Below, piece by piece: positions 13,705-35,424 of a stretch of DNA of 64,000 bases. A model generated the notes under the pieces. It did no database searches and was not told the origin of the DNA. It saw only the letters and a program-made list of their open reading frames with translations. The position numbers were made by a program, and so were the translations under genes. How positions within the stretch are numbered: the stretch's first letter is position 1; each line of letters opens with the position of its first letter. Source of the DNA: a bacterium (lineage in GTDB: Bacteria; Cyanobacteriota; Sericytochromatia; S15B-MN24; UBA4093); assembly GCA_017744355.1 (NCBI GenBank), contig JAGIBK010000003.1, forward strand, positions 54,547-118,546, written 5' to 3'.

Positions 13705-14202
13705 TTACCAGCGCTTAGGAGGCGCGCTCTTCTTGCTGCTGCCGCTGCTGAGGTTGTTGCCGTTGCCCGTCTGCTGGCTGGAGCCGCCGACGGCTTGGTT
13801 GTTCTGGTTGATGCGCACCTTCGAGCGATCGCCGGCATAGACGTCGCTGTAGTTGAGCTGCATCGTGTTGCCGCTGTTGCCCCACTCGCCGAAGTTGTCG
13901 CGGTTGTCGCTCGGCCCACCCGAGCCGCTCTTGGAGCCCGACCCACCGCTGCTCGCGTTGTTGCGGTTGCCGACTTGCTGGGCGGCGCCACCGACCGCCT
14001 GGTTGTTTTGATTGACGGAGACGTTCGACTTGGATCCGGCCTTCACCTTGCTCACGTTCGCCTGATAGGTGTTGCCGCTGTCGTCCCAGTCACCGAAGTT
14101 GTTGCGGTTGTCCGAGCCCTGGATCGACCCCACCGGGCTGTGCCCGCAGGCCACCGTGGTGAGGAGCACCGCCACAATCGCGGAAAGATGAACAATACGC
14201 AT
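13705..14202 (-). CDS. Secreted protein / possible lipoprotein with two internally duplicated Asn/Gly/Ser-rich ~60-aa repeats
   Basis: Signal peptide MRIVHLSAIVAVLLTTVAC. Two homologous repeats (DNRNNFGDWDDSGNT…NQNNQAVGG… and DNRDNFGEWGNSGNT…NQNNQAVGG…). RBS AAGGGGGA upstream of ATG 14202. Confidence 0.72.
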   Translation of the reverse strand: MRIVHLSAIVAVLLTTVACGHSPVGSIQGSDNRNNFGDWDDSGNTYQANVSKVKAGSKSNVSVNQNNQAVGGAAQQVGNRNNASSGGSGSKSGSGGPSDNRDNFGEWGNSGNTMQLNYSDVYAGDRSKVRINQNNQAVGGSSQQTGNGNNLSSGSSKKSAPPKRW

Positions 14203-15479: not shown

Positions 15480-16283
15480 TTAGTAGGGCGAGTCCTTCGG
15501 TTTCCCCCCCTTGGGCCAGTCGTGGACCTTCGGCCCGAAGTCGGGGCGGGGCTGCGAGAGCAGGTAGGCGGCCACGTCGTACGCCTGCTGGTCGCTGAGG
15601 GTGCCCCCCTGCCCCAGGGGCATGTTCCACTTGATGAAGGCCGCCGCCGTGTCGAGCCGCGCCATGCCGGCTCCGATATTGAAGGAGCGCTCGCCCCAGA
15701 GGGGCGGGAAGGCGGCCGTCCCTTGTCCATCGGGCCCGTGGCACTGCGCGCAGCTCGTCCCGTAGACCTGGCTTCCACGTTTCGCGTCAGGGGGAGCGGA
15801 CGGGCTGATCCGGGAAAAACCTTGGCCTTCGACCTTCATGCCCGTCGGCACTCCCTCCGAGAGCCAGGCCATGTAGGCGACCAGGGCGGTCATCTCTCGG
15901 CTCTCGTAGGGCAGGGCCTTGCCGTTCAGGCTGCGCTGGAAACAGTCGTTGATCCGATCTTCGATCCGATCGACCTTTCCGCTCCGGGCGCGGTACTGGG
16001 GAAAGCTGGCATACACCCCGACGTACGGGGCCGCCTTCGGCTTGCGGCCCGCCTCCAGGTGACAGTTGGTGCAGCTCAGGGCGTTGCCGACGTAGGGCTT
16101 GGCGAAAACGCCCGTCTGGGTGACGATCCGCTGGCCGTATCGGATCGTCTCGCCGCGCACGTCCGAGGGGAGCATCGCCTCGGATGGCGGGTTGAAGGGG
16201 GCGACGGGGGCGGCACCCGAAGATGGCGTCGCCCCGAGCGCCAGGAGCGCCCAGGCGGTGATCGCCACTGCTTGCAAGTTCAT
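15480..16283 (-). CDS. Diheme c-type cytochrome (TsdA/thiosulfate-dehydrogenase-like family)
   Basis: Signal peptide; two CxxCH heme-binding motifs (CTNCH, CAQCH). RBS GAGGAGG 5 nt upstream of ATG 16283. Confidence 0.85.
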   Translation of the reverse strand: MNLQAVAITAWALLALGATPSSGAAPVAPFNPPSEAMLPSDVRGETIRYGQRIVTQTGVFAKPYVGNALSCTNCHLEAGRKPKAAPYVGVYASFPQYRARSGKVDRIEDRINDCFQRSLNGKALPYESREMTALVAYMAWLSEGVPTGMKVEGQGFSRISPSAPPDAKRGSQVYGTSCAQCHGPDGQGTAAFPPLWGERSFNIGAGMARLDTAAAFIKWNMPLGQGGTLSDQQAYDVAAYLLSQPRPDFGPKVHDWPKGGKPKDSPY

Positions 16284-16307
16284 GGCGCCTCCTCGCTTCG
16301 CGGCACG

Positions 16308-16361
16308 CCCTCAAACGAACGGCCGGCCACTCGAATGAGCAGCCGGCCGTTTGTTTGAGGG
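16308..16361 (-). terminator. Long hairpin (19-bp stem with one G-U wobble, 16-nt loop) immediately downstream of the pepA stop
   Basis: ccctcaaacgaacggccgg (16308-16326) pairs with ccggccgtttgtttgaggg (16343-16361). No U-tract; shares the CCCTCAAACGAA start with the hairpin at 3042. Confidence 0.5.
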
Positions 16362-16364
16362 ATG

Positions 16365-18017
16365 TTACTTCTTGGTCGCCTTCTTGGCGGCCGGGGCCTT
16401 CGCAGCCGGCGCCTTGGCGGCAGCCTTCGCGGGGGCCTTGGCGGCGGTGGTCTTGGCCGGAGCCTTGGCCGCAGCCTTCAGGGTCGCGGGCTGGGGAGCC
16501 GAGGCGGCCTCAGCGGCGTACTCGGTGGCCAGCTCGACCAAGAGGCGGACGCCGATGCCGGTCGCGCCCTTGGGCACGTAGGCGGAGCCCTTCTCGTTCC
16601 ACGCGGTGCCCGCGATGTCGAGGTGGGTCCAGGGGTAGTTCTTGGCGAACTTCGACAAGAAGGCGCCGGCGGTGATGGTGCCGCCCGCGCGGCCGCCCGT
16701 GTTCTTGAGGTCGGCCACGTCGCTCTTGATCAGATCGAAGTAGTCGTCCCACATGGGCAGCTTCCAGGCGCGCTCGGCCGAACGCTCGCCAGCCTGGCGG
16801 ACCTTCTCGCCGAAGGCGTCGTCGTTGGTCATCAGGCCGATGGCCTGGGTGCCCAGGGCGATGACGCAGGCGCCGGTCAGGGTCGCGAGGTCGACCACGC
16901 CGCGGGGCTTGTAGCGCTCGGCGTAGGTCAGGGCGTCGGCGAGGATCAGGCGACCCTCGGCGTCGGTGTTGATGACCTCGATGGTCAGGCCGCTCATGGA
17001 GGTGAGCACGTCGCCGGGGTGGATGGCGTCGCCCGAGGGCATGTTCTCGGTGGCGGGCACCAGGGCGACTACGTTGACGGGCAACGCGAGCTTGGCGATC
17101 GCGCGGATGGCGCCGATGACCGCCGCAGCGCCGGCCATGTCGTACTTCATCTTCTCCATGCCCTCGCCGGGCTTGATGGAGATACCGCCCGAGTCGAAGG
17201 TGATGCCCTTACCGACGAAGACCAAGGGAGCTTCCTTGTCGCCGTTGGGCATGTACTCGAGGACGATGAAGCGGGGAGGCTCGGCGTCGATGGAGCCCTG
17301 GGCGACACCCAGGAACGAGCCCATGCCTTCCTTCTTGATCTGCTTCTCGTCGAGGACCTTGCAGGTGATCCCGACTTCGGCGGCCATCTTCTTGGCCATC
17401 TCGGCCATGGTCGAGGGGGTCAGGTCGTTGGGGGGCATGGAGACCATGTCCCGGCTCAGGGCCACCGCATCCGCGATCGCCTCGGCCTCGGCCTGGGCCT
17501 CGCCGATGAGCTCGGCCTGCGCCTTGTCGGCGGCAAGCAGGGTCACGCCGTCGAGATACTTGTGCTTGTCCTTGTTCTCGGTGCGGTAGACGTTGAACTG
17601 GTAGTTACCGAGCAGCATGCCCTCGACGAAGGCGCGAGCGGTCGCATGCGCGTCGATGTCCTCGGCGTCGAGGCCGAAGACCGCGGTCGAAAAGGTCTTG
17701 ATGCCCAGGTCGCGGGCAGTCACGGTCGCCTTGCCGGCGGCCTGGCGCACGCGCTCCACGGTCAGCTCGGCGGGCTTGCCGAGGCCCACGAGCAGCAGGC
17801 GCTTGGCGCCGAGCTTGCCGCCGGTGGGGATCATCATGGTCTGGTTGAGCTTGCCGGCGAAGTCGCCCGACTTGAGCACGTCGGCGACGATACCGCCGAG
17901 GGCCTTGTCCACGGCCTGCGCGTCGGCGCCGAGCTTGCTCTCACCTTCGAACAGGGCGATCGCGATCAGTTCGCCTTTCTCGGCGGCCGGAGCACCGGTC
18001 TTGATGGTTAGCTTCAT
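16365..18017 (-). CDS. pepA: Leucyl aminopeptidase (M17 family) with a C-terminal Ala/Lys/Pro-rich histone-H1-like tail
   Basis: M17 signature NTDAEGRL and VGKGITFDSGG. C-terminal ~45 residues are AKAPAKTTAAKAPAKAAAKAPAAKAPAAKKATKK. RBS GAGGAG upstream of ATG 18017. Confidence 0.92.
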   Translation of the reverse strand: MKLTIKTGAPAAEKGELIAIALFEGESKLGADAQAVDKALGGIVADVLKSGDFAGKLNQTMMIPTGGKLGAKRLLLVGLGKPAELTVERVRQAAGKATVTARDLGIKTFSTAVFGLDAEDIDAHATARAFVEGMLLGNYQFNVYRTENKDKHKYLDGVTLLAADKAQAELIGEAQAEAEAIADAVALSRDMVSMPPNDLTPSTMAEMAKKMAAEVGITCKVLDEKQIKKEGMGSFLGVAQGSIDAEPPRFIVLEYMPNGDKEAPLVFVGKGITFDSGGISIKPGEGMEKMKYDMAGAAAVIGAIRAIAKLALPVNVVALVPATENMPSGDAIHPGDVLTSMSGLTIEVINTDAEGRLILADALTYAERYKPRGVVDLATLTGACVIALGTQAIGLMTNDDAFGEKVRQAGERSAERAWKLPMWDDYFDLIKSDVADLKNTGGRAGGTITAGAFLSKFAKNYPWTHLDIAGTAWNEKGSAYVPKGATGIGVRLLVELATEYAAEAASAPQPATLKAAAKAPAKTTAAKAPAKAAAKAPAAKAPAAKKATKK

Positions 18018-18238: not shown

Positions 18239-19453
18239 ATGAGCACGTCGATTCGCACGCCCCTCGAAGCCCTGCAGCCCGGGATGGTCCTGGCAGAGCC
18301 AGTCTTCCATCCCTCGGATCGGCAGCAGTTACTGGGGCCCGGCACCGCCATCACCCCCCAGAACCTCTCGCTGCTCTATCGCGCAGGGGTCGAGGCGGTC
18401 ACGGTGATCAACTTCCAGGCCCAGCCCGTGAAGGCACCCTCCCGCCCCTTGGCGGCTCCCGTGCGGCAGACGGCCAAGACCGGCCCCCTGGGGCGCCTCT
18501 TCGGCGCGAACGAGGCCCCCGCGAAGCCCGCCACCCCCGCTCCGCCTTCCCGCGCCGAGACCGGCGCCCTGTCGCGCTTCACCGAGAGCCGCATCGAGAA
18601 GCTCGCCCGCGACGTGGTCACCCACAACGTCGCCTCGATCCGCGAGATCGCCAACACTTACAAGGAGTCGGCAGCCATCGACTTCGAGAAGGCCGACTCG
18701 TGCGTGCAGACCACGCTCCAAGAGATCGTGATGAACAAGGAGATCCTCAACAGCCTCTGCGATCTGCGGGTCTACGACGAGTACACCTACGCCCACTCCG
18801 CCAACGTCATGAGCCTTAGCCTCCTAATGGGAGTCACCCTGGGCTACCCCATCGACAAGCTGCGCCTCCTGGGGATCGGCGCCCTGTTGCACGACGTGGG
18901 CAAGAACCTCATCCCCGACTTCATCCTCAACAAGCCCGGCAAGCTGACCGAGGCGGAGTTCGCGGTCATGAAGACCCACTCCGAGAAGGGCCTGCGCCTG
19001 ATCCAGAACCACCGCTGGGCCACCCCCGAGATCAAGGGGATCGTCCTGCACCACCACGAGAAATGGGCGGGCGGCGGCTACCCCTACGGCCTCAAGGGCA
19101 ACGACATCCCCGAGATGGCCCGGGCCGTCGCAATCTGCGACGTGTGGGACGCCCTCATCTCCAACCGCGTCTACAAGAAGGGCATGCCCCCCAACCAGGC
19201 CTACCGGATCATCCTGGAGGGCATGGACACCCACTTCGAGCGGCGCATGGTCTGGGCCTTCCAGAACTTCATCGTGCCCTACCCCAAGAACGCGCTGGTG
19301 CTGCTCAACTCGGGCGAGATCGCGAAGGTCGCCCAGGTCAACCGAGAGGACCCGACCCGGCCGGTGGTCGAGATGGACGGCCAGCTCATCGACCTGGGCA
19401 AGCACGGCCGCCTGGTGGTCCAGGACCTGTACCGCCCCGAGGTCAAGGCCTAG
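18239..19453 (+). CDS. HD-GYP domain phosphodiesterase (c-di-GMP-type)
   Basis: HD motif (LHDVGK) and HD-GYP signature HHHEKWAGGGYPYG. Confidence 0.88.
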   Translation: MSTSIRTPLEALQPGMVLAEPVFHPSDRQQLLGPGTAITPQNLSLLYRAGVEAVTVINFQAQPVKAPSRPLAAPVRQTAKTGPLGRLFGANEAPAKPATPAPPSRAETGALSRFTESRIEKLARDVVTHNVASIREIANTYKESAAIDFEKADSCVQTTLQEIVMNKEILNSLCDLRVYDEYTYAHSANVMSLSLLMGVTLGYPIDKLRLLGIGALLHDVGKNLIPDFILNKPGKLTEAEFAVMKTHSEKGLRLIQNHRWATPEIKGIVLHHHEKWAGGGYPYGLKGNDIPEMARAVAICDVWDALISNRVYKKGMPPNQAYRIILEGMDTHFERRMVWAFQNFIVPYPKNALVLLNSGEIAKVAQVNREDPTRPVVEMDGQLIDLGKHGRLVVQDLYRPEVKA

Positions 19454-20450: not shown

Positions 20451-21890
20451 CTACTCGACCATCACCGGGACCATGGTGGAGTCCACCATGCCGTGGATAG
20501 CCTTCTTGTCCGCCGGTGCCACGGTGGCCAGGATCCCGTGCAGGTGCGCCTGTTCGCCGTCCACGAAGTAGTAGGGACAGAGGCGCACGCGGCCATCGAA
20601 CTGGCGGATCTCGCGCCGGTTGAAGTCGTAGTACCGGCTCTGGACCTTGGCGGGCTTGTGGTACTCCTGCAGCAGGTACGGGGTCTCGGGGAAGCTCGCA
20701 AGCGCCGCCTCGACGCGCGTGGCCCACTCCTCGGAAGGGGTGTCGCTGCCGAAGGTGATGCCCCGGCTGCCCCAGGCGAGCTCCGAGAAGCCCGAGGGCT
20801 TGAGCACGAACTCGCGCTGCTTCTTGGTGGTCGGGATCAAGTCGCGGAAGTCGCTGACCGGGCGTCCCTCGACCGTGAGGCCCGGGATCACCCCGTGCGG
20901 CGGCAGGGGGCGCGCATCCACGATCCAGGTGCGGGGCAAGAGCCGCTCCATGGCATGGAAGCTCTCGGCGCCCAGCTCCTGCTCCCAGTAGCCCTGGAGC
21001 ATGGGGTGGTGGAAGAGGGCGAAGAGCATCTTCTCTTCGAGGAAGGTCTTGAAGGGGGGCGTGACGACGACCTGCTGCTTCTTGGCCGCGTACATCATCA
21101 GCTCGGTCTTGGGCACGTTCTTGAGATCGAACAGCTCGAAGAAACGATAGATGACGTCGAGGCGCTCGGCGTCGAGCCAGAAGGCCTCGTCGGCGTAGCG
21201 CAGCTGCTCGGGACGCACGACCTGGACCCGCAAGAGCCCCGCGGCGTTGAGCGCGTCGGCGACGTGGGCCATCTCGTTCCAGTAGTCGTTCGACTCCTGG
21301 GAGATGACGATGGCGACGAAGGGATCGGCCACCTCGGGCACCTGGGCACGGATCATGCGGGCGAAGCCATGCAGCATGCCGTCGGCGCCGCCCACGGTCT
21401 CGAAGCCGAGCTTGGCGTAGGCCGTCGAGAGGCTCGAGACGAAGCCCTGACCGCCGGGCACCGAGTCGAGCTCGCAGGCGATCGCGCGTCCCTCGTCGGT
21501 GAAGATGAGGTCCGGCCGGATGATCGCCGGCACGAGCTTCTTCTGGCGATTCATGCGGGCGTACTCGATCAGGTGCTCGGGCTTGCCCTGCTCCAGGTAC
21601 TCGGCCACCCAGGGCGCGATCTTGCCCTTGACGCTCTCGTAGTAGAGCTTGTTGGCGGCCTGGTAGAACCGCAGCAGGTGGTTACCCAGGCTCTTGACGT
21701 AGAGGTACGTCTCCTTGGAGATGCAGAAGGGCTCCGGCGCGATGCGCCAGGGGATGTGGCTGTCGGGGTGATGGTCGCGGGTGGTCGATTTGAAGATCGC
21801 CTCCCCCTCGGCCATGCGGTTGAGGCTCAGGCAAGCCTCGACCGGATCCACGTGAGAGGGCTTGAGCGCACAGTTTCCGACAATGGTCAT
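20451..21890 (-). CDS. Conserved hypothetical protein, possibly ATP-grasp / glutathionylspermidine-synthase-like ligase (function uncertain)
   Basis: 479-aa ORF with GC-biased third positions; start 9 nt after the upstream zinc-ribbon gene's stop (translational coupling). Family assignment is a guess from overall composition, not a motif match. Confidence 0.75.
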   Translation of the reverse strand: MTIVGNCALKPSHVDPVEACLSLNRMAEGEAIFKSTTRDHHPDSHIPWRIAPEPFCISKETYLYVKSLGNHLLRFYQAANKLYYESVKGKIAPWVAEYLEQGKPEHLIEYARMNRQKKLVPAIIRPDLIFTDEGRAIACELDSVPGGQGFVSSLSTAYAKLGFETVGGADGMLHGFARMIRAQVPEVADPFVAIVISQESNDYWNEMAHVADALNAAGLLRVQVVRPEQLRYADEAFWLDAERLDVIYRFFELFDLKNVPKTELMMYAAKKQQVVVTPPFKTFLEEKMLFALFHHPMLQGYWEQELGAESFHAMERLLPRTWIVDARPLPPHGVIPGLTVEGRPVSDFRDLIPTTKKQREFVLKPSGFSELAWGSRGITFGSDTPSEEWATRVEAALASFPETPYLLQEYHKPAKVQSRYYDFNRREIRQFDGRVRLCPYYFVDGEQAHLHGILATVAPADKKAIHGMVDSTMVPVMVE

Positions 21891-22328: not shown

Positions 22329-22820
22329 TTAGTGACTTTCGCGCCGTTCGAGGATCACGATGCCCGGCGGCCAGGGGATTCCCGCCGGTTGCGGCGACAG
22401 GATCCGGGCCCCGTCCCCGTCCACCTGGAAGCGCGCGACCCGCTGGAAGGTGCCCCCGCCGCCGTCCTTGACGGTGAGAAAGACCTCGTAGATGCCCGGG
22501 GTACGCGGCGGCAGGTAGGCGCTGTAACTGGTGGCCAGCGAGTCCGAGGCGACCGGCACGCTCTCGGAAGCGACCGATAGCCAGCCTGCGCTGGTGCGCC
22601 AGTTGAAGGCCATCATCCCCACCCCGCTCGCAAGGGCCATGAGTTCGAAGGGGCCGCGCTTCTCCAGGGTGGAGGCAGGGCGCGCCTCAAAACGGACGAT
22701 CAAGGGATTTTGCTCGCTGCGCGGGCCGTAGGCCCCGGTCAAGTGGTCGCAGGCGCTCAACGACGCCACGATCATCGCCCCGGCCACAACCCAGCCCATC
22801 CACTCGCCTGCCTGACGCAT
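22329..22820 (-). CDS. Hypothetical lipoprotein (last gene of the pilus-like locus)
   Basis: ATG at 22820 (GGGAGG upstream) gives MRQAGEWMGWVVAGAMIVASLSAC with a canonical LSAC lipobox. Track ORF extends further 5' without support. Confidence 0.6.
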   Translation of the reverse strand: MRQAGEWMGWVVAGAMIVASLSACDHLTGAYGPRSEQNPLIVRFEARPASTLEKRGPFELMALASGVGMMAFNWRTSAGWLSVASESVPVASDSLATSYSAYLPPRTPGIYEVFLTVKDGGGGTFQRVARFQVDGDGARILSPQPAGIPWPPGIVILERRESH

Positions 22821-22938
22821 GGTGCAGACCTCCCGGGCTGCGCTTATGCAGCCAAGGCTTACGATACCTGCCTTCACGCCCATGCCACAGGCCGGGACCG
22901 ACGAAGTTTCACGCATGCCTCGTGCGATATGACCAAAG

Positions 22939-25437
22939 CTAATTTCTGAGCTTGAGCGTCAACACCAGGCGCTTGATGCCGCGCGGCGCGGTCATTTGAA
23001 GCTCCACCCGGCACGAGCCGGCGGGCAGCGTGGCAGGGAGCCGGGTCGTCACTTGCCAGTCACGTTTGTCCACCCGGCGCAAGGGGATGGGTGGCGATCC
23101 CTCGAAGCGCAGCCAGACCTGACGCGCCGTGGCGATCGCCCGGACCCGCACAGTGACGGGCCGCCCGCGCACGGCGGGGTCGGGGGTGAAGACCACGGGC
23201 GGCGGCGAGTTGTGCGGCGCTTGAGGCTCGGCCGCCGTCTCGAAAAACTCAGCGGACAGGGAGCCGTCGAGCTTGAGCAGGGGGGCCTCTTTCTGGCTCA
23301 CGACGAAGTCCAGGTCGTCGCGTGCGGCCTGCTCTTTCAGAGAAATGGCATGGGCCTGCTCTTCCCAGGTATAGTCGCCGTCCATCGAGGAGCTCGCAAG
23401 GCGTACCACGTAATGGCCCGCCGGCAGGGCCTCGAAGGCGTAGCGACCTTCCGCGTCGGTCCATGTCTCGCGCGCCTCCTCGCCTTCGAGCGCCACGGTG
23501 AGCGACGCCACGCCGCGCCCCTGGCGATCGCGCACGCGGCCCGCGAGGCGGCGCGCGAGCTGGACGTCGAAGCGCAGGTCCAGAAGCTGCTGCCCCTTGG
23601 CCAGGGTAACGGCGCGCACGGTCTGAGCAGGCGCGATCGCAAGCGCCAAAGGCAAGCGATTGGCGTCGAGCGACACGAGGTGAGGGCCCGGCGTGACCTC
23701 GTCGAAGGCAAAGCGCCCATCCGGGGCCACCGTCGCAACCTGCACCCGATCCAGCAGGACCCGCAGCTCGCCTGTGACCGTGCCGGGCGGCAAGAAGACG
23801 CGTCCGCCGAGGCGCGCCGGGCGCTCATCAGGCGTCCTCTCGCCCGGTGGCCCGAAGCGGCTCTCGTAGCGAGCGAGCCAGCGGGCACTCGCCGGCCCAC
23901 CGATGCTCTGTTCGAGCGCCCCCGTCGCGCTGAGCTGCTCGCTCTCGGAGAGCAGGGTGCTCAGATCGAGGCTCAGCCCCACGCGGCTGCTCGGATCGAA
24001 GGGTTCGGTCGCCAGGTGTTCGAGAAAGGCGCCGCTACGGACCTGCACCCGTCGATCCAGGAGCGGCCCGCCCCAGGCGAGGCCGTGCAGGAGCCTGGTC
24101 GGGGCATCCGCGCGAAGCGTCACGTTCTCGTTCCAGTCCAGGGCGCTGCCGAACAGGCCGCTCTCCTGCAAGCCCAGCAGGTGCTGCTGAATGGGAGCAC
24201 CTGAGAAGTGGCTCTGCCACCACTCCCAGCGGGCCCGGCTGCGCTGCGCGAACGGCAGCTGAAAGGTCAGCTCGCTCGCGAGGCGGTCGAAGCGCAGCGC
24301 ATAGGACGTAGAAGCGCTGGTCGTGAGCATGTCGCTCTGCGAGTAGCTCACGTTCGTGCCGGGCCCCTGCCGTGGCTGGTAGGCGAGCCCCACCATGGCA
24401 AAGCCCGATTGCTGGCGCGGCAGGGCCGCATCCCCGGCCAGGTTGAGCATCCCACGCCCCATGGTGGCGTTGGCCTGCCATTCCCCCGAGAGCTCCGCTT
24501 TCAGGGACGCGTTCCAGTTCTCGCGCCCCCCCTCGCGCAGGAAGGCCTGGTAGCGAACCGGCTGGAAGTCGGCCCCCTGGCGCAGGTAGGTACCCTGGAA
24601 GCGCAGGCGATCCCATGGCACCTCGGCCGACCAGCGCGTCCCCCAGTCGGGACGCGCGCCTCCGAGCGCGGCGGCGAGGTCCCCTTCGAGACGCGTCCCG
24701 CCCTCCACGTAGGCTGCCCCGACGCTGGTGAGGCCGCCGCGGATCGCAAGGTCCTCGTCGTCCTGGGCGAGCAGCCTCCCGCGCAAGACGAGGCGATCGG
24801 AGAGGGGCGTCTCCGCCTGGGCGCCGGCGAGGGTGCGGCGGCGCTCGGCCGAGGCGATGGCAGGGCGATCGCGTCCGGCGAAGGCCATCCCCTTCCAGTT
24901 GCGGCCCTGCAGGTGGGCTCCCCCACCGCGGATCGCCAGGTCGTCCATCAAGAGCGCGCCCAGCGAGAGCGCCTCGTCGCCGATCGTCAAAAAGCCACGA
25001 TCGCCCAGGTGGCCGACGAGGCTGAACTCACCGAGTTGCCAGGCCTGGTCCTGCCGGTCGGCGACCGAGCGAAAAGACCAGAGCGTGTCTCCCTGGCTCC
25101 CGCGCAGCGACAAGCCCAGGCGCGACGTGCTCATGCCCTGGCCCGCGTCGCCCCCGTAGCGGCTCGCCCCTTGATGAAGCTGCATTTCGCCCGAGGGCAG
25201 CCAGGGCATGAGGCGCAGGGGGTTGAGCACCCCTTCCGGCAAAGGAGTGGTCGGCACCTTGAGAATGGTTCCCTGGGTCGAAGCCGGTGGTGGCGAGGGT
25301 GCGGCCTTCTTGACGCGCTTGACCACGGGCACCTTGGCCTCGGGCAGCAGGAGCTGTTCGCTCGGCACGGCCCCCCACGCCGCGCCGGCGAAGCCGAGCA
25401 CCCCGATTGCGCATGCCCAGCGGCAAAGCGTACGCAA
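22939..25437 (-). CDS. Large outer-membrane protein, putative pilus usher-like assembly platform (atypical; C-terminal CarboxypepD_reg-like domain)
   Basis: 832 aa with signal peptide; TTG start 3 nt after the chaperone-like gene's stop. Assignment rests on size and gene order (pilin, adhesin, chaperone, this gene), not on a recognised usher motif. Confidence 0.6.
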   Translation of the reverse strand: MRTLCRWACAIGVLGFAGAAWGAVPSEQLLLPEAKVPVVKRVKKAAPSPPPASTQGTILKVPTTPLPEGVLNPLRLMPWLPSGEMQLHQGASRYGGDAGQGMSTSRLGLSLRGSQGDTLWSFRSVADRQDQAWQLGEFSLVGHLGDRGFLTIGDEALSLGALLMDDLAIRGGGAHLQGRNWKGMAFAGRDRPAIASAERRRTLAGAQAETPLSDRLVLRGRLLAQDDEDLAIRGGLTSVGAAYVEGGTRLEGDLAAALGGARPDWGTRWSAEVPWDRLRFQGTYLRQGADFQPVRYQAFLREGGRENWNASLKAELSGEWQANATMGRGMLNLAGDAALPRQQSGFAMVGLAYQPRQGPGTNVSYSQSDMLTTSASTSYALRFDRLASELTFQLPFAQRSRARWEWWQSHFSGAPIQQHLLGLQESGLFGSALDWNENVTLRADAPTRLLHGLAWGGPLLDRRVQVRSGAFLEHLATEPFDPSSRVGLSLDLSTLLSESEQLSATGALEQSIGGPASARWLARYESRFGPPGERTPDERPARLGGRVFLPPGTVTGELRVLLDRVQVATVAPDGRFAFDEVTPGPHLVSLDANRLPLALAIAPAQTVRAVTLAKGQQLLDLRFDVQLARRLAGRVRDRQGRGVASLTVALEGEEARETWTDAEGRYAFEALPAGHYVVRLASSSMDGDYTWEEQAHAISLKEQAARDDLDFVVSQKEAPLLKLDGSLSAEFFETAAEPQAPHNSPPPVVFTPDPAVRGRPVTVRVRAIATARQVWLRFEGSPPIPLRRVDKRDWQVTTRLPATLPAGSCRVELQMTAPRGIKRLVLTLKLRN

Positions 25438-25440
25438 AGG

Positions 25441-26250
25441 CTATCGTTCCAGGAAGGTCTCCGCCTCCAGGGCCTCCTCGCCGCCATAGTCGAGGGAGAC
25501 CTGGGCCTGGTAGCGTCCCGGGGCGAGGTCCTTCTCAAGGGGAAGCTGAAGCAGGCGCTTGCTTTCGCGGATGAGGGCCACGTCCTCGATCTTGAGCTCC
25601 GCGACGGTCGTGCCGTCCGGTCGACTCAGCTTGACCACGCCCGAGCACCGCACATGGACCTTGCCGGGATTCTCCAGCACGAGGCCGACCCGCGCAGGGG
25701 CCTTGCCCTTAGGCGGTAGGTAGGCGACGCCCCCGATCGTGGCCTGCCGCTCGAACGGCGGAACCGCCACGTACAGGGTGTCCCCCAGGCGCTGGCTGAA
25801 GAGGATCATGGAGCGACCCTTCTTGGTGGGCACCTGAGGCGGTGTCGTCTCGAAGAAGAGCATGCCCTGGTACTCGCCCGGCTCGACGCCCGCTGGCACC
25901 GCCACGTTGACCCGGACGGCCTGCTGCTGGTTGGGCAGCAGCACGAACTGCGCCGGCGAGAAGGTGACGAAGCGCTGCGCGGAGTACGCAGACTTGCCCG
26001 GCAGCAAGAAGAGCATCTCCCCCGACGGGTGAAGGCCCCAGTCGGAGTAGTAGGCGCGGACCCGCAGGGCGTCTTTACCCGAGTTGGCGACGGTGACCGA
26101 GAAGGCCTGATTCTCGCCAGGCGTCACGACCAGCTCCTGGCGCGCGGGAAAGATCGACAGCGAGGAGAGCCCAGCCTTGGCGGGGGATGCCCAGGCGAGA
26201 CTCAGCAGGCAGAGGGCCAGGAAGAGGAGGGGGCGAGCTTGGTGCTGCAC
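25441..26250 (-). CDS. Periplasmic pilus-assembly chaperone-like protein (PapD-like fold predicted)
   Basis: GTG start at 26250 gives signal peptide (V)QHQARPLLFLALCLLSLAWASPAKA. Beta-rich pattern IFPARQELVVTPGENQAFSVTVANSG…RVRAYYSDW resembles chaperone N-domain signatures. The track's 57 extra N-terminal residues are Arg-rich and unlikely. Confidence 0.65.
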   Translation of the reverse strand: MQHQARPLLFLALCLLSLAWASPAKAGLSSLSIFPARQELVVTPGENQAFSVTVANSGKDALRVRAYYSDWGLHPSGEMLFLLPGKSAYSAQRFVTFSPAQFVLLPNQQQAVRVNVAVPAGVEPGEYQGMLFFETTPPQVPTKKGRSMILFSQRLGDTLYVAVPPFERQATIGGVAYLPPKGKAPARVGLVLENPGKVHVRCSGVVKLSRPDGTTVAELKIEDVALIRESKRLLQLPLEKDLAPGRYQAQVSLDYGGEEALEAETFLER

Positions 26251-26264
26251 GGAAGAGGCGCCTT

Positions 26265-27776
26265 TCAATACCCGGCCGCCGTGTAGGTGACGGTCGAGAC
26301 GTACGTATCGGAGGTGTAGGCCCAGCTGGGCAGGAACCGGTAGTCGAAGGTCAGGATCCCGCCGTCGGTGCGGCCGTCGAGCGTGGCGAGGCTCAAGGCC
26401 TGCTGGCTGAAGGCGTCCCAAACGCCGTTGCCCCGGCTCAGCTGCACCTGCGCCCTCACCGCCTCTCCCCCGACCGGCGGCCGCGAGGGGCTCGCGCGAA
26501 AGAGGAAGCTCGAAAGGGGGAGGGTCTCGCGCTCCGAGGTGGGCGCGGTCGCCGCGACCGAGAGGGTGGTTTGGCCATAGTTGCTCTTGAGCGTGACCAC
26601 CGCCGCGCCATCGGCCTGATCGGTGCCGGGGGCCTCCGGGTCGGAGACCAGCTGGATGGGCCCCGTGTTGACGGTGAGCGTCAAGCGAGGGGGCACCGTC
26701 ACCGCAACGGTCGTGGGGGTCAGGACCGCGGGCGGTGCGGCGCCGCTCGCGAAAGCGGCGGTATAGGTCAACTGCGACGTGTAAGTGGCCGGGGCGTACG
26801 CCCAGTCGCTGTCCACCTGAAAGCTCAGATCGAAGGGCGTCTCGGCGGAAGGCCCCGAGAACGAGGCCACCGTCTGGTCCGTTTCGCTCAGGGCACGGGG
26901 CGCGGCCGAGCCGAGACGGAAGGTATAGGCGCCGAAGGGGATGGTGTTGATGCCGTCCGAGAGGGGCCTTGCCCGGATGGCGAGCGTCGTCGCCTCCCCT
27001 GGCCGGGCGTTGCTCTTGAGCACCGCCCTCACGTTGGAGGTGGCGGGCGAAGCCGCCAGCGGATCGGCCGTCAACGTGAAGTGACTCGGCGGGACCGAGA
27101 GGGCCACGCGAGGCGGCACGGTAAGCGCGATCGCGAGGCTGGTCGGCAACACCGGCCCATCCTCGAGGCGGTATCCGTAGCTGAGGCCTGCCGAATAGGT
27201 GCCCCAGGGCTGCAGCCAGCTGTTCTTCAGCTTGAGCTGCGTGTTGTAATACCGGGCACCCTTCTTGCTCTTGCTCAGCCCGAACTGGCGCGTCGCGGTC
27301 GCAAGGGCCTGGTTATTGGGGTTGCTCCGCGATCGCGTGGCCGTCCAGACGGACTTGGAGTCGGTCCCGGCCCCGTCCCAGACCAGGTTGGCGAGCGGCA
27401 TGCTGCCGAACGAGGATAAAAGGTCGCCCGACGCGCCGAGGAAGGCCCCGACCTCGTCCTTCTTGGGGGTCAGAAACCAGAGCGGATCCTGGAGCAGGCC
27501 GCCGAGATCCAGGTCCAGATCGAGCGAAAGACCATCGTCGGGGCCGTTCTGCGAATAGCTGAGTTCGTACTGGATACCGGGGGAGAGGATCGAGACGGGC
27601 TCCGTATCAGGGTTGGAGGCCTCCATGACCCCTACCAGGGAGACGGCACCGCCAAGGGGCGCCCCCGTGGCGGCGTTTTTCAACGACGTCACGGGCGGCG
27701 CCACCTTGGAATCAGCGATCGCCTCGGTTGCCAGTCCCAGCCATGTCGCCACGACCAGGAGGGACAGCCGACGCAT
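26265..27776 (-). CDS. Secreted multi-domain pilus subunit / tip-adhesin-like protein with two SCPU-like modules
   Basis: Signal peptide. Two modules ending in the motif YTSQLTYTAA / YTSDTYVSTVTYTAA, shared with the adjacent 170-aa pilin. Start 2 nt after the pilin stop. Confidence 0.7.
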   Translation of the reverse strand: MRRLSLLVVATWLGLATEAIADSKVAPPVTSLKNAATGAPLGGAVSLVGVMEASNPDTEPVSILSPGIQYELSYSQNGPDDGLSLDLDLDLGGLLQDPLWFLTPKKDEVGAFLGASGDLLSSFGSMPLANLVWDGAGTDSKSVWTATRSRSNPNNQALATATRQFGLSKSKKGARYYNTQLKLKNSWLQPWGTYSAGLSYGYRLEDGPVLPTSLAIALTVPPRVALSVPPSHFTLTADPLAASPATSNVRAVLKSNARPGEATTLAIRARPLSDGINTIPFGAYTFRLGSAAPRALSETDQTVASFSGPSAETPFDLSFQVDSDWAYAPATYTSQLTYTAAFASGAAPPAVLTPTTVAVTVPPRLTLTVNTGPIQLVSDPEAPGTDQADGAAVVTLKSNYGQTTLSVAATAPTSERETLPLSSFLFRASPSRPPVGGEAVRAQVQLSRGNGVWDAFSQQALSLATLDGRTDGGILTFDYRFLPSWAYTSDTYVSTVTYTAAGY

Positions 27777-27778
27777 GC

Positions 27779-28291
27779 TTAGGGGGCAGCGACGGTGTAG
27801 GTCACGGTCGAGGTGTAGTCGCCCGCGTCATAGTCGAAGCTGTTGCCGAGCAGATAGGTGACGTTGACGTGGGCGCCGTTCTTGCCGGTCTTCGTGTTGA
27901 GGTCCTTCACCGAAGTCGCCGTGGTGTCCGAGAAGGTGACGGCGGTGTTGGAGCTATCCACCCGGTACTTGAAGTTGGAAAGGGGAATCGACGAGCCGGC
28001 CGCGGTGCCCGCGCCCTGCGGGGCGGTGGCGGTCACGCTGACCTTGGCGCCGCCCTTGTAGTTGCTGAACACGGTGAGGCCCGAGGCGAGGCTCGAAGCG
28101 GTGCCGTCGGCCGCGTCCGGATCGACGGTCAGGGTGCCGGCGAGGTTGTCCATCACGATGGAGAGACGCGCCGGAACGCTGATGTTGACGGTGTGGGTGC
28201 CGTTGGTGGCAGCCTGCGCCACGGGGGCCATGGCAACGAAAAGGCCGAGCGCGAGGGCGCCGGCGCTAAACTGGGTGATTGACTTCATCAT
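27779..28291 (-). CDS. SCPU (spore coat protein U)/Csu-type pilin-like secreted subunit
   Basis: Signal peptide MMKSITQFSAGALALGLFVAMAPVAQA; ~145-aa Thr/Ser/Val-rich mature part ending YTSTVTYTVAAP. First gene after an AT-richer promoter region. Confidence 0.72.
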   Translation of the reverse strand: MMKSITQFSAGALALGLFVAMAPVAQAATNGTHTVNISVPARLSIVMDNLAGTLTVDPDAADGTASSLASGLTVFSNYKGGAKVSVTATAPQGAGTAAGSSIPLSNFKYRVDSSNTAVTFSDTTATSVKDLNTKTGKNGAHVNVTYLLGNSFDYDAGDYTSTVTYTVAAP

Positions 28292-29449: not shown

Positions 29450-31114
29450 TCAGATGTGATAGCCGCGGAAGCGCTCGGTCTTGGCCTGCGGGCGCAGCAC
29501 GGCCGCGTCCTGGACCCGGGCGGCCTCCTGGGCCACGCCGAAGTAGTCGAGCCACTCTTGCGGGGCGTCGATGGTCTCGCCGCCGTGGCTCGTCAGGCGC
29601 GATCGCACCTGGCACAGCACCGGAGTATTGATCGCAACCCCCGCCACCACCACTTGCCCCTTGGTCAGGGCCGGCAGCTCGTCCAGCAGGTCGCGCCCCG
29701 CGCCCTCGACCGAGCTTGCGATGGTCTGCTGGTCGATGGGGTTCACGATCTTCATGATGAACTGGGTCATGCACTGGGAGAGCACGTCGCTGTCCAGCTT
29801 GCCCGGTCGCTGGGTGATGAGGCCGACCCCCACGCCGAACTTGCGGCCCTCGGCGAGGATCGTCTTGAGGATCGGGGTGCTGACGACTGTGGCCCCGGCC
29901 GGTGCGAAGCGGTGGGCCTCTTCGAGCAGCACGAAGACCGGGTAAGGCACGTAGGTCTCGCCGTCGTGGACCTTGCCGTTCTTGGTGTCCATCCGCGCGC
30001 GGTTGATGCGCCTGAGCAGGGTCGAGACGATCACCTGCTGCATGTCCTGGTCGATCTCGTTGAGCTGGATGACCGTGACCTGGCCGGGGGCGAACAGCTC
30101 GGGCAAAGGCAGGTGGTCCCGGTCGTGGAAGATCCGCGATCGCGCGAAGCGGTCCTCGAGGCGCCAGCGGATGCCCTCGATGGTGCTCGCGTTGGAGGAC
30201 GGATCGTCCTCGGCCCCCTCGGTGCGCATGGCATCCAGCGCGTTGAAGAGGTCCTGGAGGCCCCACAGGTGGCCGTCACCCTTGCGGCCCCGGACCCGGT
30301 CGAAGGCCTTGCCGAGGAAGGCGTTCATCTTCTCGCTCATCATGGGCAGCAGCGATCGCACGTCAGTCTCGGTGAGGCTCGAGAAGCGGATCCGCACCTG
30401 ATCGTGCGGGATGATCCGCACCCGAGGCCGGTAGCCGCCCTGCGAGAAGGCCGGATGGTTCTCGAACTCGCGGAAGGTGTGGTACTCGCCGTGGGGGTCG
30501 ATGACGAGCACCGCCGCGCGGTTGTAGGGGCGCAGCAGCTCCTCGATGAGCACACCCGCCGTGTAGCTCTTGCCGGAGCCGGTGGAGGCCAGAATGGCCA
30601 GGTGGGTCGAGACCAGGTTCTTGACGTCCAGCACCACGGGCACCTCGCCGGCCGCTCGGGTCAAGAGCGAGCCGAGGTGGGCCGAGCCTGGCGCCCCTTC
30701 GGTCTTGGGGCTCAAGACCTCGGTCAAGAAGGCGCTACTGGCCAGGTGGACCCGCGCACCCGGATCGGGCATCATCCGCGGATTGACGAAGCCCTTGAAG
30801 CGCGGATCGAAGTAGCCCGCGATCGAGACCGTCACCTCGTAGAGCTCAGGGGTGGCCGCGTCGAAGCCGATCAGCTCGGCCACCTCGGAAGGCGGGATGT
30901 GGGGATCCGCGAGGAAGGCGTCGGGCAGGGTGCGAACGATGGCCTTCTCGGTGATCTTGCCGAGGATCAGGCGCTCGGTGCCGTCCACCGACACCGGGTA
31001 GTAGACGAACTCGCCCACCTTGGTGCGGGCGTTGTCCGGGGTGATGAAGCGGTACTCGTGGGCGCTCTCGCCCGGGCCCTTGACGGTGCCGATCAACAGG
31101 TCTTGGCTCATCAC
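29450..31114 (-). CDS. herA: HerA-like ATPase/helicase (FtsK-HerA superfamily, DUF87-type)
   Basis: Walker A ILASTGSGKSYT, Walker B VFVLLEEAHRF, LITQRP motif, N-terminal barrel-like region. GTG/ATG start overlaps the upstream gene's TGA (GTGATGA). Confidence 0.88.
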   Translation of the reverse strand: MMSQDLLIGTVKGPGESAHEYRFITPDNARTKVGEFVYYPVSVDGTERLILGKITEKAIVRTLPDAFLADPHIPPSEVAELIGFDAATPELYEVTVSIAGYFDPRFKGFVNPRMMPDPGARVHLASSAFLTEVLSPKTEGAPGSAHLGSLLTRAAGEVPVVLDVKNLVSTHLAILASTGSGKSYTAGVLIEELLRPYNRAAVLVIDPHGEYHTFREFENHPAFSQGGYRPRVRIIPHDQVRIRFSSLTETDVRSLLPMMSEKMNAFLGKAFDRVRGRKGDGHLWGLQDLFNALDAMRTEGAEDDPSSNASTIEGIRWRLEDRFARSRIFHDRDHLPLPELFAPGQVTVIQLNEIDQDMQQVIVSTLLRRINRARMDTKNGKVHDGETYVPYPVFVLLEEAHRFAPAGATVVSTPILKTILAEGRKFGVGVGLITQRPGKLDSDVLSQCMTQFIMKIVNPIDQQTIASSVEGAGRDLLDELPALTKGQVVVAGVAINTPVLCQVRSRLTSHGGETIDAPQEWLDYFGVAQEAARVQDAAVLRPQAKTERFRGYHI

Positions 31115-31686
31115 TTCACCGCCTGGATGGTTCGCTGCCAGTTGAGCGCGTTGCGCAGCACCCCGAGCCGTGCGCGATCCTCAGGGCAGAGGGAGTTGAG
31201 GCGATCGAGGACCGCAAGGAGCAAGCTAAGGCTCGCAGGGCCTCCGTTCGCCTGCACCAGGGGCAGGTAGCGCAGCTGGAGGCGCCCCGTCTCGTCCCGG
31301 TGAAAGCGAACAAAGTCCTCGTCCGGCAGGGTCTCGACCTCGGAGTGGACCGGGATCACCTCGCCCGGCACCTCGTGGACCCCGTGCAGAGCGCCCAGGC
31401 GCCCGAGCAACAGGACGCTCACGAGCGTTGCCTGCTCGTCGATGAGGTCCGGCGTGAAGACCCGGATCTCTTGGGGCGAGTTGCTCAGGCGGGGACCGAA
31501 GTGGCCGAAGTCGGGGTTCTGGAGCTGGGAGTCGAAGACGATGCCGATCGCATCCCCCGCCAGGCGCACGAAGCGGCCGAAGGCGTAAGCGCCAGGCTCG
31601 GGAGGCTCGGGGATCTCACCCGGATGGTAGATCTGGCAGACGTAGTCCAGGTGCGATCGCGACGAGACGATCTTTCCGATGCGCAA
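31111..31686 (-). CDS. Hypothetical protein encoded between nurA and herA
   Basis: TTG start at 31686 with GGAGGGAAGG RBS; stop overlaps herA start; GC-biased third positions; no recognisable motif. Confidence 0.6.
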   Translation of the reverse strand: MRIGKIVSSRSHLDYVCQIYHPGEIPEPPEPGAYAFGRFVRLAGDAIGIVFDSQLQNPDFGHFGPRLSNSPQEIRVFTPDLIDEQATLVSVLLLGRLGALHGVHEVPGEVIPVHSEVETLPDEDFVRFHRDETGRLQLRYLPLVQANGGPASLSLLLAVLDRLNSLCPEDRARLGVLRNALNWQRTIQAVK

Positions 31687-31743
31687 GGCCTTCCCTCCAG
31701 TCGAAGCAACCTTTCGATTCTAGAACAAACGATTGATGTCCGG

Positions 31744-32901
31744 CTAGCGGCGCCGGAGCTTGGAGAGGGCCTTCTTCGAGAAGCGCAGCGGCACGCCGCG
31801 CACGTCGAGGAACTCCTGGACGGTGCGGTAGAAGCCGTCGCGATCGGCCGCCGAGAGCACCGCCGTCGCATCCGCCGCCGCCAGCGTGTAGGGGTAGCCG
31901 CCGCCTGCGATCGCATCGGCGCGCACCACGTCCAGCACCTCGTCCAAGAGGCCCGCCTCCTGGATCCAGAGGGGGTACTCCAGGCGCGCGGGCGGCGCGT
32001 CGGCATTGGTCTGCAGGTAGCAGAAGCCGATGCGGCGGGCCCAGTCTCCATAGTTGTCGAGGATCCCCTCGCGCGCGCAGATGGCGGTCGGGGTGCGATC
32101 GCCCCACTCCAGGCGACCCGCAAGCAGCGCGGCGTCGCTGACCCCGCCGGTCCCCGAGAGGCCCCGCCAGCTGGCGAGCATGGTCGCGAGGTCGTGGGCG
32201 TAAGAGGTGTCCACGTAAGCGATGAGCGGCACCCGCGCGGCCTCGGCGTCAGCCAAGAGCCCTCTCACGAGCTCCACGTACCGAAGTGAATAGGCGTCCT
32301 GCTTGCGCTTCTCAGCAAAGGAGACCACCAGGCTGCCGTCCAGGTAGACGATGCGCCCGGGCTCACCCGGCGCGGCCAGGTAGCGCCTGAGGGCGGCCAC
32401 CTCCAGCTCGAAGCGCGCGAGGTCCACCTTGCGCTTGGGCGGGCCCACCTCGTCCTCCTTGAGGTCGTCGGGGCCCAGCACTCGCACGTCCACGTCCTTG
32501 CGGTAGCCTGGGGCCTCGGCGGCATGCAGGTTCTCGAACCACCCCACCTGGACCAGGGCCACCGGCAGCGAAAAGCGCCGATCGGGCTCGATCTGGCTGC
32601 CGTCCGCCGCGAAGGTCGGCCGGCCCGCGAGCTTATTGAAAGCCCAGGCCCTCGCCGCGGAGTGGTCGTTCCATGAAAGGCCGAAAGGGATCCGCGCACC
32701 CCGGTCCCACTCTTCGGTGGGCAGAGCGCCGGGCGCATCGAAAGTGGCAAGGGCCGCCCCGAGCGACGCGGCATCGGCCTCGGAAAGCGCATCGAGGGCC
32801 GCGACGAGCGCTTCGAGCCGTCCGGTCAGGGCGGCGTCGTAGGCGTCGAACGCGCTCGCGCAGGCTTCCAGGGCCCCCAAGAGGCGATCGCGGTAGAGCA
32901 T
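31744..32901 (-). CDS. nurA: NurA-domain 5'-3' nuclease
   Basis: NurA-like N-terminal catalytic motif (…FAADGSQIEPD…); ATG 32901 lies 2 nt after the patatin stop (TGAgcATG); position upstream of herA as in known nurA-herA pairs. Confidence 0.8.
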   Translation of the reverse strand: MLYRDRLLGALEACASAFDAYDAALTGRLEALVAALDALSEADAASLGAALATFDAPGALPTEEWDRGARIPFGLSWNDHSAARAWAFNKLAGRPTFAADGSQIEPDRRFSLPVALVQVGWFENLHAAEAPGYRKDVDVRVLGPDDLKEDEVGPPKRKVDLARFELEVAALRRYLAAPGEPGRIVYLDGSLVVSFAEKRKQDAYSLRYVELVRGLLADAEAARVPLIAYVDTSYAHDLATMLASWRGLSGTGGVSDAALLAGRLEWGDRTPTAICAREGILDNYGDWARRIGFCYLQTNADAPPARLEYPLWIQEAGLLDEVLDVVRADAIAGGGYPYTLAAADATAVLSAADRDGFYRTVQEFLDVRGVPLRFSKKALSKLRRR

Positions 32902-32903
32902 GC

Positions 32904-34262: not shown

Positions 34263-34490
34263 TCCGAAAAAATGGCCAAAATGCTGAGGGCAAGTAGCCA
34301 AATATCAGGATGACAAGGTCACCACCTGGCTTTCAGGCCCAAGCTCGCCCCCCGAAAAAGCGCGAGAGCACGCGTTGTAGAAGGATGGACCAGCCCCTAG
34401 CATCGACGTCGGCGCACAGGGGGACGAGCTTCATTGCTCGGGGCTCCCCAACACCGCCGGATGGCCCTCGGGGCCGGGAGGTTGCGAACG
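34263..34490 (+). repeat. Conserved 5' leader, copy A, upstream of the first RGG/aromatic-rich secreted protein gene
   Basis: Shares long near-identical blocks with 35209..35424 (CCG(A/G)AAAAATGGCCAAA(A/G)TGCTGAGGG…, a ~90-nt core …AGAGCACGCGTTGT…CAGCCCCTAGCATCGAC(G/C)TCGGCGCACA…GGGGG…CGAG, and GGAGGTTGCGAACGATGAAACGGGT). Confidence 0.8.
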
Positions 34491-35208: not shown

Positions 35209-35424
35209 TCCGGAAAAATGGCCAAAGTGCTGAGGGTAAGTCGAACGATCTCGCTGCAAGAGGGGTGGGGACCTCGATCAGGGCCGAAGCCCGCCCCCTG
35301 CGAAAGCGCCAGAGCACGCGTTGTGGGATTGATGGCCAGCCCCTAGCATCGACCTCGGCGCACAAGGGGGCGAGTTGCTCCTCGGTGTCGCCGAACGGCC
35401 CCAAGGGCCAGGAGGTTGCGAACG
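35209..35424 (+). repeat. Conserved 5' leader, copy B, upstream of the second RGG/aromatic-rich secreted protein gene
   Basis: See copy A; tandem duplication of leader plus gene plus terminator. Confidence 0.8.

Follow-up and report, generated by a model that had tools for sequence, protein, structure and literature searches.

Within a 64,000-nucleotide stretch of DNA from a bacterium of the Sericytochromatia (Cyanobacteriota), here called the window (positions 54,547 to 118,546 of the forward strand of contig JAGIBK010000003.1, GenBank assembly GCA_017744355.1), the pepA gene encodes a leucyl aminopeptidase of the M17 family that ends in a tail of 44 residues composed very largely of lysine, alanine and proline. 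Comparison with homologues indicates that this tail is a genuine and clade-specific part of the protein, and we favor, with moderate confidence, the view that it serves as a polycationic tether to a polyanion, most likely DNA. The parts of the gene on which the argument depends are as follows.

16365..18017, minus strand: pepA coding sequence including the stop codon, encoding a 550-residue M17 leucyl aminopeptidase (open reading frame list, NCBIfam, PDB match)
17577..17960, minus strand: M17 N-terminal domain, residues 20-147 (Pfam PF02789 Peptidase_M17_N, E = 4.6e-29)
16536..17459, minus strand: M17 catalytic domain, residues 187-494 (Pfam PF00883 Peptidase_M17, E = 1.3e-132)
16500..16550, minus strand: last structured element, the C-terminal helix of residues 490-506 (…GVRLLVELATEYAAEAAS), from the AlphaFold2 model
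16368..16499, minus strand: Lys/Ala/Pro tail, residues 507-550 (APQPATLKAAAKAPAKTTAAKAPAKAAAKAPAAKAPAAKKATKK), net charge +11, predicted to be disordered (composition, AlphaFold2, homologues)
16365..16367, minus strand: pepA stop codon TAA, kept in the close relative L086 (DNA alignment A1)

Up to the helix at residues 490-506, PepA appears to be an ordinary M17 enzyme that is presumably active, since its domains, its catalytic residues and its modelled fold are all M17-like. The gene begins with ATG, preceded by a GGAG Shine-Dalgarno sequence 6 nt to its 5' side, and the product scores above the cut-off of six NCBIfam leucyl-aminopeptidase equivalogs, the top one being NF002074 (570 bits against a cut-off of 415). 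The closest solved structures are P. aeruginosa leucyl aminopeptidase (8pz0, E = 6.5e-139) and E. coli PepA (1gyt, E = 3.6e-116); the alignment of solved M17 structures with the protein stops at about residue 499, inside the C-terminal helix. All seven catalytic and metal-binding residues are present (K270, D275, K282, D293, D352, E354 and R356, numbered as in E. coli PepA), the NTDAEGR motif is found along with the ligands of the binuclear metal center, and the seven residues are invariant across a 38-sequence alignment (A2). The AlphaFold2 model has a predicted template modelling score (pTM) of 0.83 and was matched by Foldseek to 8pz0 and 1gyt with TM-scores of 0.89 and 0.88, respectively. 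By its architecture, catalytic residues and predicted fold the protein is thus a member of the M17/PepA family, and the identity proposed in the initial annotation, a note written from the DNA letters without database searches, is supported by Pfam, NCBIfam and the catalytic residues alike.

After the last domain residues the C-terminus reads YAAEAAS-APQPATLKAAAKAPAKTTAAKAPAKAAAKAPAAKAPAAKKATKK. Alanine accounts for 21 of the 44 residues of the tail and lysine for 11; the rest are 6 Pro, 4 Thr, 1 Gln and 1 Leu. Arg, Asp, Glu, Gly and Ser are all absent, and the charge of the tail, +11, is set against a net charge of -11 for residues 1-506. The other 47 genes of the window that are supported by GC3 (the G+C content of third codon positions) average 3.4% Lys, 6.9% Arg and 12.3% Ala; on a binomial model, 11 or more Lys would turn up in 44 residues with a probability of 1.9e-7, and 21 or more Ala with one of 8.6e-9. 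Among the other genes of the window, no C-terminus comparably basic to that of PepA was found. At a GC content of 67%, mutational drift or read-through would be expected to yield Arg, Gly, Pro and Ala; therefore, a tail of 25% Lys and 0% Arg, with 11 lysines encoded by AAG, runs counter to the genomic bias. The look of an evidently spurious extension is seen in P0130, P0158 and P0253, PepA sequences from our global search whose extensions are Arg-rich and contain Cys and Trp. The tail is encoded by an imperfect tandem repeat, for which Tandem Repeats Finder gives periods of 12, 15 and 27 nt, with units of the AKAPA(A)K type. AlphaFold2, when supplied with the clade alignment, assigned residues 508-550 a predicted local distance difference test score (pLDDT) of about 32 and a DSSP coil state, following a confident fold through residues 490-506, and the tail is accordingly predicted to be intrinsically disordered. 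The initial annotation had described the reading frame as continuing past the catalytic domain into a basic repeat: the extension is indeed in frame, running some 44-51 residues beyond the domain, and the tail sequence quoted there is exact. The span given for it, 16365-16515, is correct in its coordinates, with the minus strand left unstated.

An artefact of sequencing, assembly or frameshift, or a mis-called stop codon, might be suspected from the repetitive nature of the tail region and from the long spurious open frames that arise in GC-rich genomes. We regard such an explanation as having practically no chance of being correct. The tail and the body of the gene have matching GC3 values (0.88 and 0.94) and share their preferred codons (AAG, GCC, CCC and ACC), and the remaining two frames of the same strand hit a stop within 0-32 codons of the domain end. 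A compost-metagenome protein of 99% identity bears the same tail with one substitution, and 14 or more homologues, assembled independently of one another (from NCBI, JGI, ENA and Logan), carry the same type of tail. When the tail DNA is aligned with that of L086 and L082 (93-94% identical), the only indels are of 3, 6 and 12 nt (alignment A1). The conserved stop codon is followed by a conserved hairpin, which separates pepA from the next gene.

16305..16362, minus strand: very stable GC-rich hairpin without a U-tract (RNA fold -48.5 kcal/mol, z = -8.8 against shuffles)
15480..16283, minus strand: gene for a dihaem SoxA/TsdA-like cytochrome c, downstream of pepA

The hairpin has about 27 paired positions and lies 5 nt past the pepA TAA, between pepA and the start of the dihaem cytochrome c gene. 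Its stem is kept in L086 through compensatory changes, although the downstream gene of L086 differs; a simple terminator scan passes over it because of the missing U-tract. Codon usage, independent homologues, in-frame indels and the conserved stop and hairpin together rule out the frameshift or assembly error that had been named as a point to check. From this body of sequence evidence, the tail is genuine coding sequence, and the artefact reading is effectively refuted already.

The homologues also indicate that the tail is clade-specific. We surveyed the 120 best homologues of the window PepA, which is itself P0001, and found 14 with K/A-rich tails: P0002-P0012, which form the immediate clade at 66-99% identity, together with P0019, P0020 and P0034. 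The identity of the tailed homologues thus ranges over 58-99%, the lowest being P0019 with 58% identity in the catalytic domain. P0034 is labelled 'Cyanobacteria bacterium REEB65', and the labels of other relatives include NC_groundwater_1444 as well as Pantanalinema and Stenomitos, the latter two being less credible given the GC content. The source of the window, an uncultured bacterium, may represent a basal cyanobacterial lineage that is not photosynthetic. The K/A/P/T tails of the 14 homologues reach 21-110 residues beyond residue 499 and contain 20-33% Lys. Any acidic residues lie within the first few positions of the linker, and KK, KKK or KKR closes each tail that is complete (P0003 is cut at a contig end). 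The tail sequences are not alignable among homologues; what they share is compositional. In contrast to the tailed clade, the protein stops 0-12 residues past the domain in 79 complete distant PepAs (41-52% identity), which come from Nitrospirota, Acidobacteriota and further phyla. This distant set was drawn from contigs of species-representative genomes, among which the tail-bearing clade is unrepresented; its PepAs reach no more than 52% identity. The suggestion in the initial annotation that the extension would prove lineage-specific is therefore borne out, and the contrary outcome that it had envisaged, a tail missing from the orthologues of closely related genomes, did not materialize, given that P0002-P0012 carry tails. 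Within the super-clade of the window PepA, P0021, P0035, P0037 and P0059 have no extension. Since tailed and tailless sequences mix in this super-clade in a neighbor-joining tree, the tail must have been both gained and lost, or gained repeatedly.

The comparison is between genes in the same place, as is evident from the neighbor that pepA faces.

18239..19453, plus strand: HD-GYP-type (HD_5) gene, divergent neighbor of pepA (Pfam HD_5 and HD)

The divergent pairing of pepA with an HD-GYP gene recurs in all of the loci that we fetched (L081, L082, L084, L085, L086 and L087), be they tailed or not, and the shared neighbor allows us to treat the pepA homologues as positional orthologues. Often, pepA loci also have a CN-hydrolase gene beyond the HD-GYP gene and an NAD synthase gene downstream.

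A six-frame scan for 25-residue stretches with at least 5 Lys, no more than 1 acidic residue and at least 72% A/K/P/T/S returned PepA C-termini only. The 170,286 nt of clade DNA that were scanned consist of the window and seven clade loci, a small and partly syntenic sample, and within it the result argues that the K/A tail is not a proteome-wide habit. Basic tails do recur on PepA itself. A separate monophyletic group of nine PepAs (P0026, P0028, P0031, P0040, P0044, P0048, P0058, P0091 and P0094; about 52% identity, placed beside Nitrospirota-labelled sequences) carries Arg/Ser/Lys tails of 20-31 residues, for example SRPRKPAKRRPGRSKARS. An exhaustive HMMER search of 1.84 billion cluster representatives, queried with the tail together with the 52 domain residues preceding it, gave 1,450 matches at E <= 0.001. 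The best 150 of these 1,450 include further K/A-rich PepA tails (P0124, P0152 and P0156) and, in P0150, P0170 and P0254, a 'GPKPGPRTSLG…' linker with a K/R-rich tail, 40-54 residues long. It appears that PepA has acquired basic disordered C-terminal tails on several separate occasions.

Bacterial 'histone H1-like' K/A/P tails, such as those of AlgP, PhaF, HupB, Ku and TopA, constitute a compositional class and not a homologous family. On the evidence of sequence and model, the tail of PepA belongs in this class by its composition, its repeats, its predicted disorder and its variation in repeat number. The histone-H1-like character proposed in the initial annotation is hence sustained as far as composition, repeats and predicted disorder are concerned, and fails where homology to H1 is meant: Pfam did not find the linker-histone domain PF00538 in PepA, and neither SPKK nor TPKK occurs in the sequence. 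With homology undetectable and S/TPKK motifs absent, 'H1-like' describes a composition, not an ancestry. Two other leads were discarded. A match of residues 501-549 to the C-terminus of the valyl-tRNA synthetase model, seen when the full-length protein was compared with NCBIfam (E = 7.5e-4), is a low-complexity hit of no biological meaning. Sorting signals (PEP-CTERM, LPXTG, the T9SS C-terminal domain and the encapsulin cargo peptide) were likewise dropped, the tail having neither a hydrophobic segment nor a matching motif.

DNA binding has been shown experimentally for the K/A/P tails of AlgP, PhaF, HupB, Ku and TopA (PMC9239181, PMC5676037, PMC3553676, PMC5714199). HupB cannot associate with the nucleoid in vivo without its PAKK/KAAK tail (PMC5676037), the lysine repeats of TopA stabilize the enzyme-DNA complex (PMC5714199) and the PAKKA repeats of Ku help DNA segments to come together (PMC3553676). 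The KPAA tail of AlgP, with about 25% Lys, binds DNA and sits on polyphosphate granules; the KPAA tails of AlgP and PhaF tether granules of polyphosphate or polyhydroxyalkanoate to the nucleoid (PMC9239181, PMC11894788). PepA, for its part, is a DNA-binding protein in other bacteria. The E. coli enzyme binds and wraps DNA, contacting it through sites in the N-terminal domain and a groove on the C-terminal core (PMC2655662); its main DNA-binding determinants lie in the M17 N-terminal domain (PMC2655662, PMC13492116), and Arg164 is crucial for DNA binding in both E. coli and V. cholerae (PMC13492116). PepA of V. cholerae is bound at about 180 sites on the chromosome, and the genes that it regulates include some for phosphodiesterases of cyclic di-GMP (PMC9674212, PMC13492116). 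In a phmmer comparison with 1GYT, Arg164 of the E. coli enzyme aligns with Lys165 of the window protein, a conservative change which, as a single position in a domain of 24% similarity, is weakly informative.

Since all characterized K/A/P tails of bacteria bind DNA or another polyanion electrostatically and without specificity, and PepA binds DNA elsewhere, the most economical reading is that the tail raises or broadens the association of PepA with the nucleoid. The tail would hold the enzyme by charge, whatever the sequence, to a polyanion, most probably the nucleoid. Such tethering would make PepA more concentrated around DNA and keep it there for longer, a service that the K/A/P tails of HupB, Ku, TopA, AlgP and PhaF render to the folded domains of those proteins. 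The M17 hexamer is a dimer of trimers. Since M17 enzymes are hexameric, with the C-terminal domains forming the core (PMC2655662), we infer by analogy that the PepA described here is a hexamer too, and a single particle would then carry six flexible tails of +11, or about +66 altogether, on a core whose acidic subunits have a charge of about -11 each. Such a tailed hexamer could bridge or gather DNA segments. The tail itself evolves through in-frame slippage of short repeats rich in GCC, AAG and CCC, with selection apparently acting on composition (rich in Lys, non-acidic, ending in KK, KKK or KKR) and not on the exact sequence. Both the binding of the tail to DNA or another polyanion and any physiological consequences are, at this stage, inferred by analogy.

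A bolder version of this proposal is that PepA is a true nucleoid-associated particle, a DNA-wrapping hexamer of about 330 kDa equipped with six linker-histone-like tails and acting as a chromatin-architectural protein or global regulator. We think it improbable. If true, such a PepA might control the divergent gene for an HD-GYP cyclic di-GMP phosphodiesterase, much as PepA of V. cholerae controls genes of this kind, and the gain of basic tails in at least 2-3 other lineages would mean that the DNA role of PepA is ancient and widespread and not a gammaproteobacterial peculiarity. The idea that PepA might regulate its divergent HD-GYP neighbor derives from the activation of cyclic di-GMP phosphodiesterase genes by V. 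cholerae PepA (PMC9674212). When the DNA between pepA and the HD-GYP gene was aligned (A3) to look for a conserved operator, conservation was seen among the three closest relatives only, which is uninterpretable, and an Rfam scan of the window gave no match.

Several observations weigh against a tether to DNA. Other members of the super-clade manage without a tail, P0013 and P0014 having a short acidic end and P0015-P0018 a short Ala-rich one, from which it follows that the tail is dispensable for PepA function. The tail alone matched nothing in Pfam or NCBIfam at E <= 10, and a 47-residue tail query against 5.8 billion proteins gave 396 word candidates, none of them scoring, although the composition correction of HMMER suppresses low-complexity queries of this kind. 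The link between the tail and known DNA-binding tails is accordingly one of composition. The repeat periods are themselves multiples of 3 nt, so that slippage alone keeps the frame, and the frame-keeping indels are a weaker sign of selection than they seem. Neither Xer, carAB nor any other DNA-transaction gene was found adjacent to pepA in the window. Finally, nothing in the tail distinguishes DNA from other polyanions, polyphosphate and RNA being equally accessible targets.

It is this last point that lends substance to the nearest competitor, in which the same chemistry serves another target and the tail brings the hexamer to granules of polyphosphate, or else to RNA and ribosomes, so that peptides might for instance be turned over at starvation-induced polyphosphate condensates or near translation. 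The AlgP tail, of equal Lys density (25%), localizes to polyphosphate granules (PMC9239181, PMC11894788), and the Arg/Ser-rich tails of the second PepA clade have a composition more typical of RNA-binding disordered regions. Nevertheless, PepA is the one aminopeptidase with documented DNA binding (PMC2655662, PMC9674212), most of the characterized bacterial K/A/P tails are found on DNA-binding proteins (PMC3553676, PMC5676037, PMC5714199), and the genes of the neighborhood give no pointer to polyphosphate or RNA metabolism; we therefore hold this alternative to be unlikely, if by no means negligible. It could also be argued that the tail is a tolerated, slippage-prone appendage of low complexity which has no specific ligand, acts at most as a solubility aid or entropic bristle and is kept because it is harmless. 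Its rapid turnover in sequence and in length (21-110 residues), the tandem-repeat DNA that encodes it, the tailless P0013-P0018 and the lack of a matching family model would all be in keeping with this. However, neutral read-through should resemble P0130, P0158 and P0253 and not a tail of 11 Lys that lacks Arg and acidic residues altogether, the composition and the basic end are still seen at the 58% catalytic-domain identity of P0019, and basic tails have arisen independently on PepA elsewhere while no other gene in the 170 kb has one. A harmless appendage is, in our estimation, doubtful.

We see still less to recommend a tail that acts within or between PepA particles by folding onto the acidic surface of the hexamer, gating its substrate channels or driving higher-order assembly or condensation, and consider this very unlikely. 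The opposite charges of body and tail (-11 and +11) suggest it, as does the greater acidity of K/A-tailed bodies, whose median charge is -9 compared with +4 for tailless PepAs overall (Mann-Whitney P = 2.5e-4). This correlation is phylogenetic, however: tailless members of the super-clade are as acidic or more so (P0013 and P0014 -20, P0021 -9, P0035 -11), the bodies of the Arg/Ser/Lys-tailed clade are basic (median +7) and the AlphaFold model shows no docked conformation of the tail. A simple charge compensation, with the tail offsetting an acidic body, was rejected on the same ground, as the correlation vanishes once the tailless clade members are inspected.

The window contains a number of other features worth recording. 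A four-gene cluster on the minus strand (29450..34172) comprises genes for a patatin-like phospholipase (32904..34172) and a NurA nuclease (31744..32901), an open reading frame (ORF) of 191 residues (31111..31686), whose counterparts in L081 and L082 are annotated as DUF8166, and a gene for a HerA/DUF87 ATPase (29450..31114). This HerA-NurA/patatin cluster is kept upstream of pepA in L081 and L082, and the HerA-NurA module with its patatin partner may be related to defence. Between the cluster and pepA, the window has about 6 kb of genes (22329..28291) that L082 lacks there. ORFs of 479, 326, 503 and 170 residues, all supported by GC3 (20451..21890, minus, and 25441..28291, minus), have no Pfam match; the one of 479 residues adjoins the CN-hydrolase gene in L081, L082, L085 and L087 too, and is likewise unannotated there.

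Two tandem paralogous ORFs on the plus strand (34434..35114, 226 residues, and 35416..36072, 218 residues) have lipoprotein-like signal peptides (…TAACS and …AAGCS), a shared N-terminal region of about 70 residues, RGG-box-like repeats of the (G)FRGG/GRGF type and an extremely Tyr/Trp/Pro-rich C-terminus, for example YYPYYLYDGYYYPYSYPYYGNYYYPYYY; they have no Pfam match. A second basic repeat, 'KPRPKPRP' at 34820-34909 on the minus strand, turned out to be merely the antisense shadow of the plus-strand RGG-repeat gene. At 13705..14202 on the minus strand lies the gene of a secreted protein of 165 residues, rich in Asn, Gln, Gly and Ser and again without a Pfam match, which contains two internal repeats of about 75 residues with the pattern …DNRNNFGDWDDSGNT.Q.N.S.V.AG.KS.V..NQNNQAVGG..QQ.GN.NN.SSG….

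K/A/P tails as such are already known, as is the DNA role of PepA as such. What appears undescribed is that PepA can bear a K/A/P tail, that a cyanobacteria-related clade has conserved it and that basic tails recur on this enzyme. A 2025 review of bacterial M17 enzymes does not mention a C-terminal extension or tail, and a search of the full-text literature on M17 or leucyl aminopeptidases together with lysine-rich or C-terminal extensions found nothing relevant. Nearly all work on PepA as a DNA-binding 'trigger enzyme' has been done in E. coli and Vibrio. The apparently repeated gain of basic tails by PepA, and by none of its sampled neighbors, offers comparative evidence that contact with a polyanion, most simply DNA, is important to PepA far outside the Gammaproteobacteria. 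Positional orthologues with tails (P0001-P0012) and without them (P0013-P0018) amount to a natural experiment, and such pairs could reveal how a large oligomeric enzyme is affected by a linker-histone-like tail in terms of avidity, DNA bridging and condensates. The advance is incremental: a further lineage and a metabolic enzyme join the known hosts of bacterial K/A/P tails, and no new principle is introduced.

Measured against the systems that it resembles, the window PepA shares with PepA of E. coli and V. cholerae (XerB, CarP) the two-domain M17 architecture and the same catalytic numbering, at 40% identity and a TM-score of 0.88 to 1GYT; the alignment of a basic residue, K165, with the DNA-binding Arg164 says little by itself. 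The E. coli protein ends at residue 503 and is tailless, whereas the protein described here adds a polycationic tail of 44 residues to an acidic folded body. With the C-terminal domain of eukaryotic H1/H5 the tail has in common that it is rich in Lys, Ala and Pro, basic and, by prediction, disordered; it differs in its lower Lys fraction (25%) and in the absence of S/TPKK motifs, PepA has no winged-helix domain, and homology is not detectable. The tail also resembles those of AlgP and PhaF, which are likewise C-terminal, disordered low-complexity repeats of Lys, Ala and Pro with about 25% Lys and a variable number of repeats (PMC9239181). Here too, homology of sequence to the PepA tail is not detectable, and the 154 residues of near-perfect KPAA that AlgP carries on a small coiled-coil protein differ from the 44 residues of looser AKAPA(A)K units with Thr that are borne by an enzyme of 500 residues. 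HupB/Hlp, Ku and topoisomerase I of the Actinobacteria differ in lineage, in the higher Lys density of PAKKA and in that their hosts are dedicated DNA-binding proteins, whereas the host here is a metabolic peptidase. They nevertheless offer the same evolutionary picture of fast-evolving, lineage-specific Lys-rich tails on conserved proteins, which, like the tail of PepA, are present in some species and absent in close relatives (PMC5676037, PMC3553676, PMC5714199).

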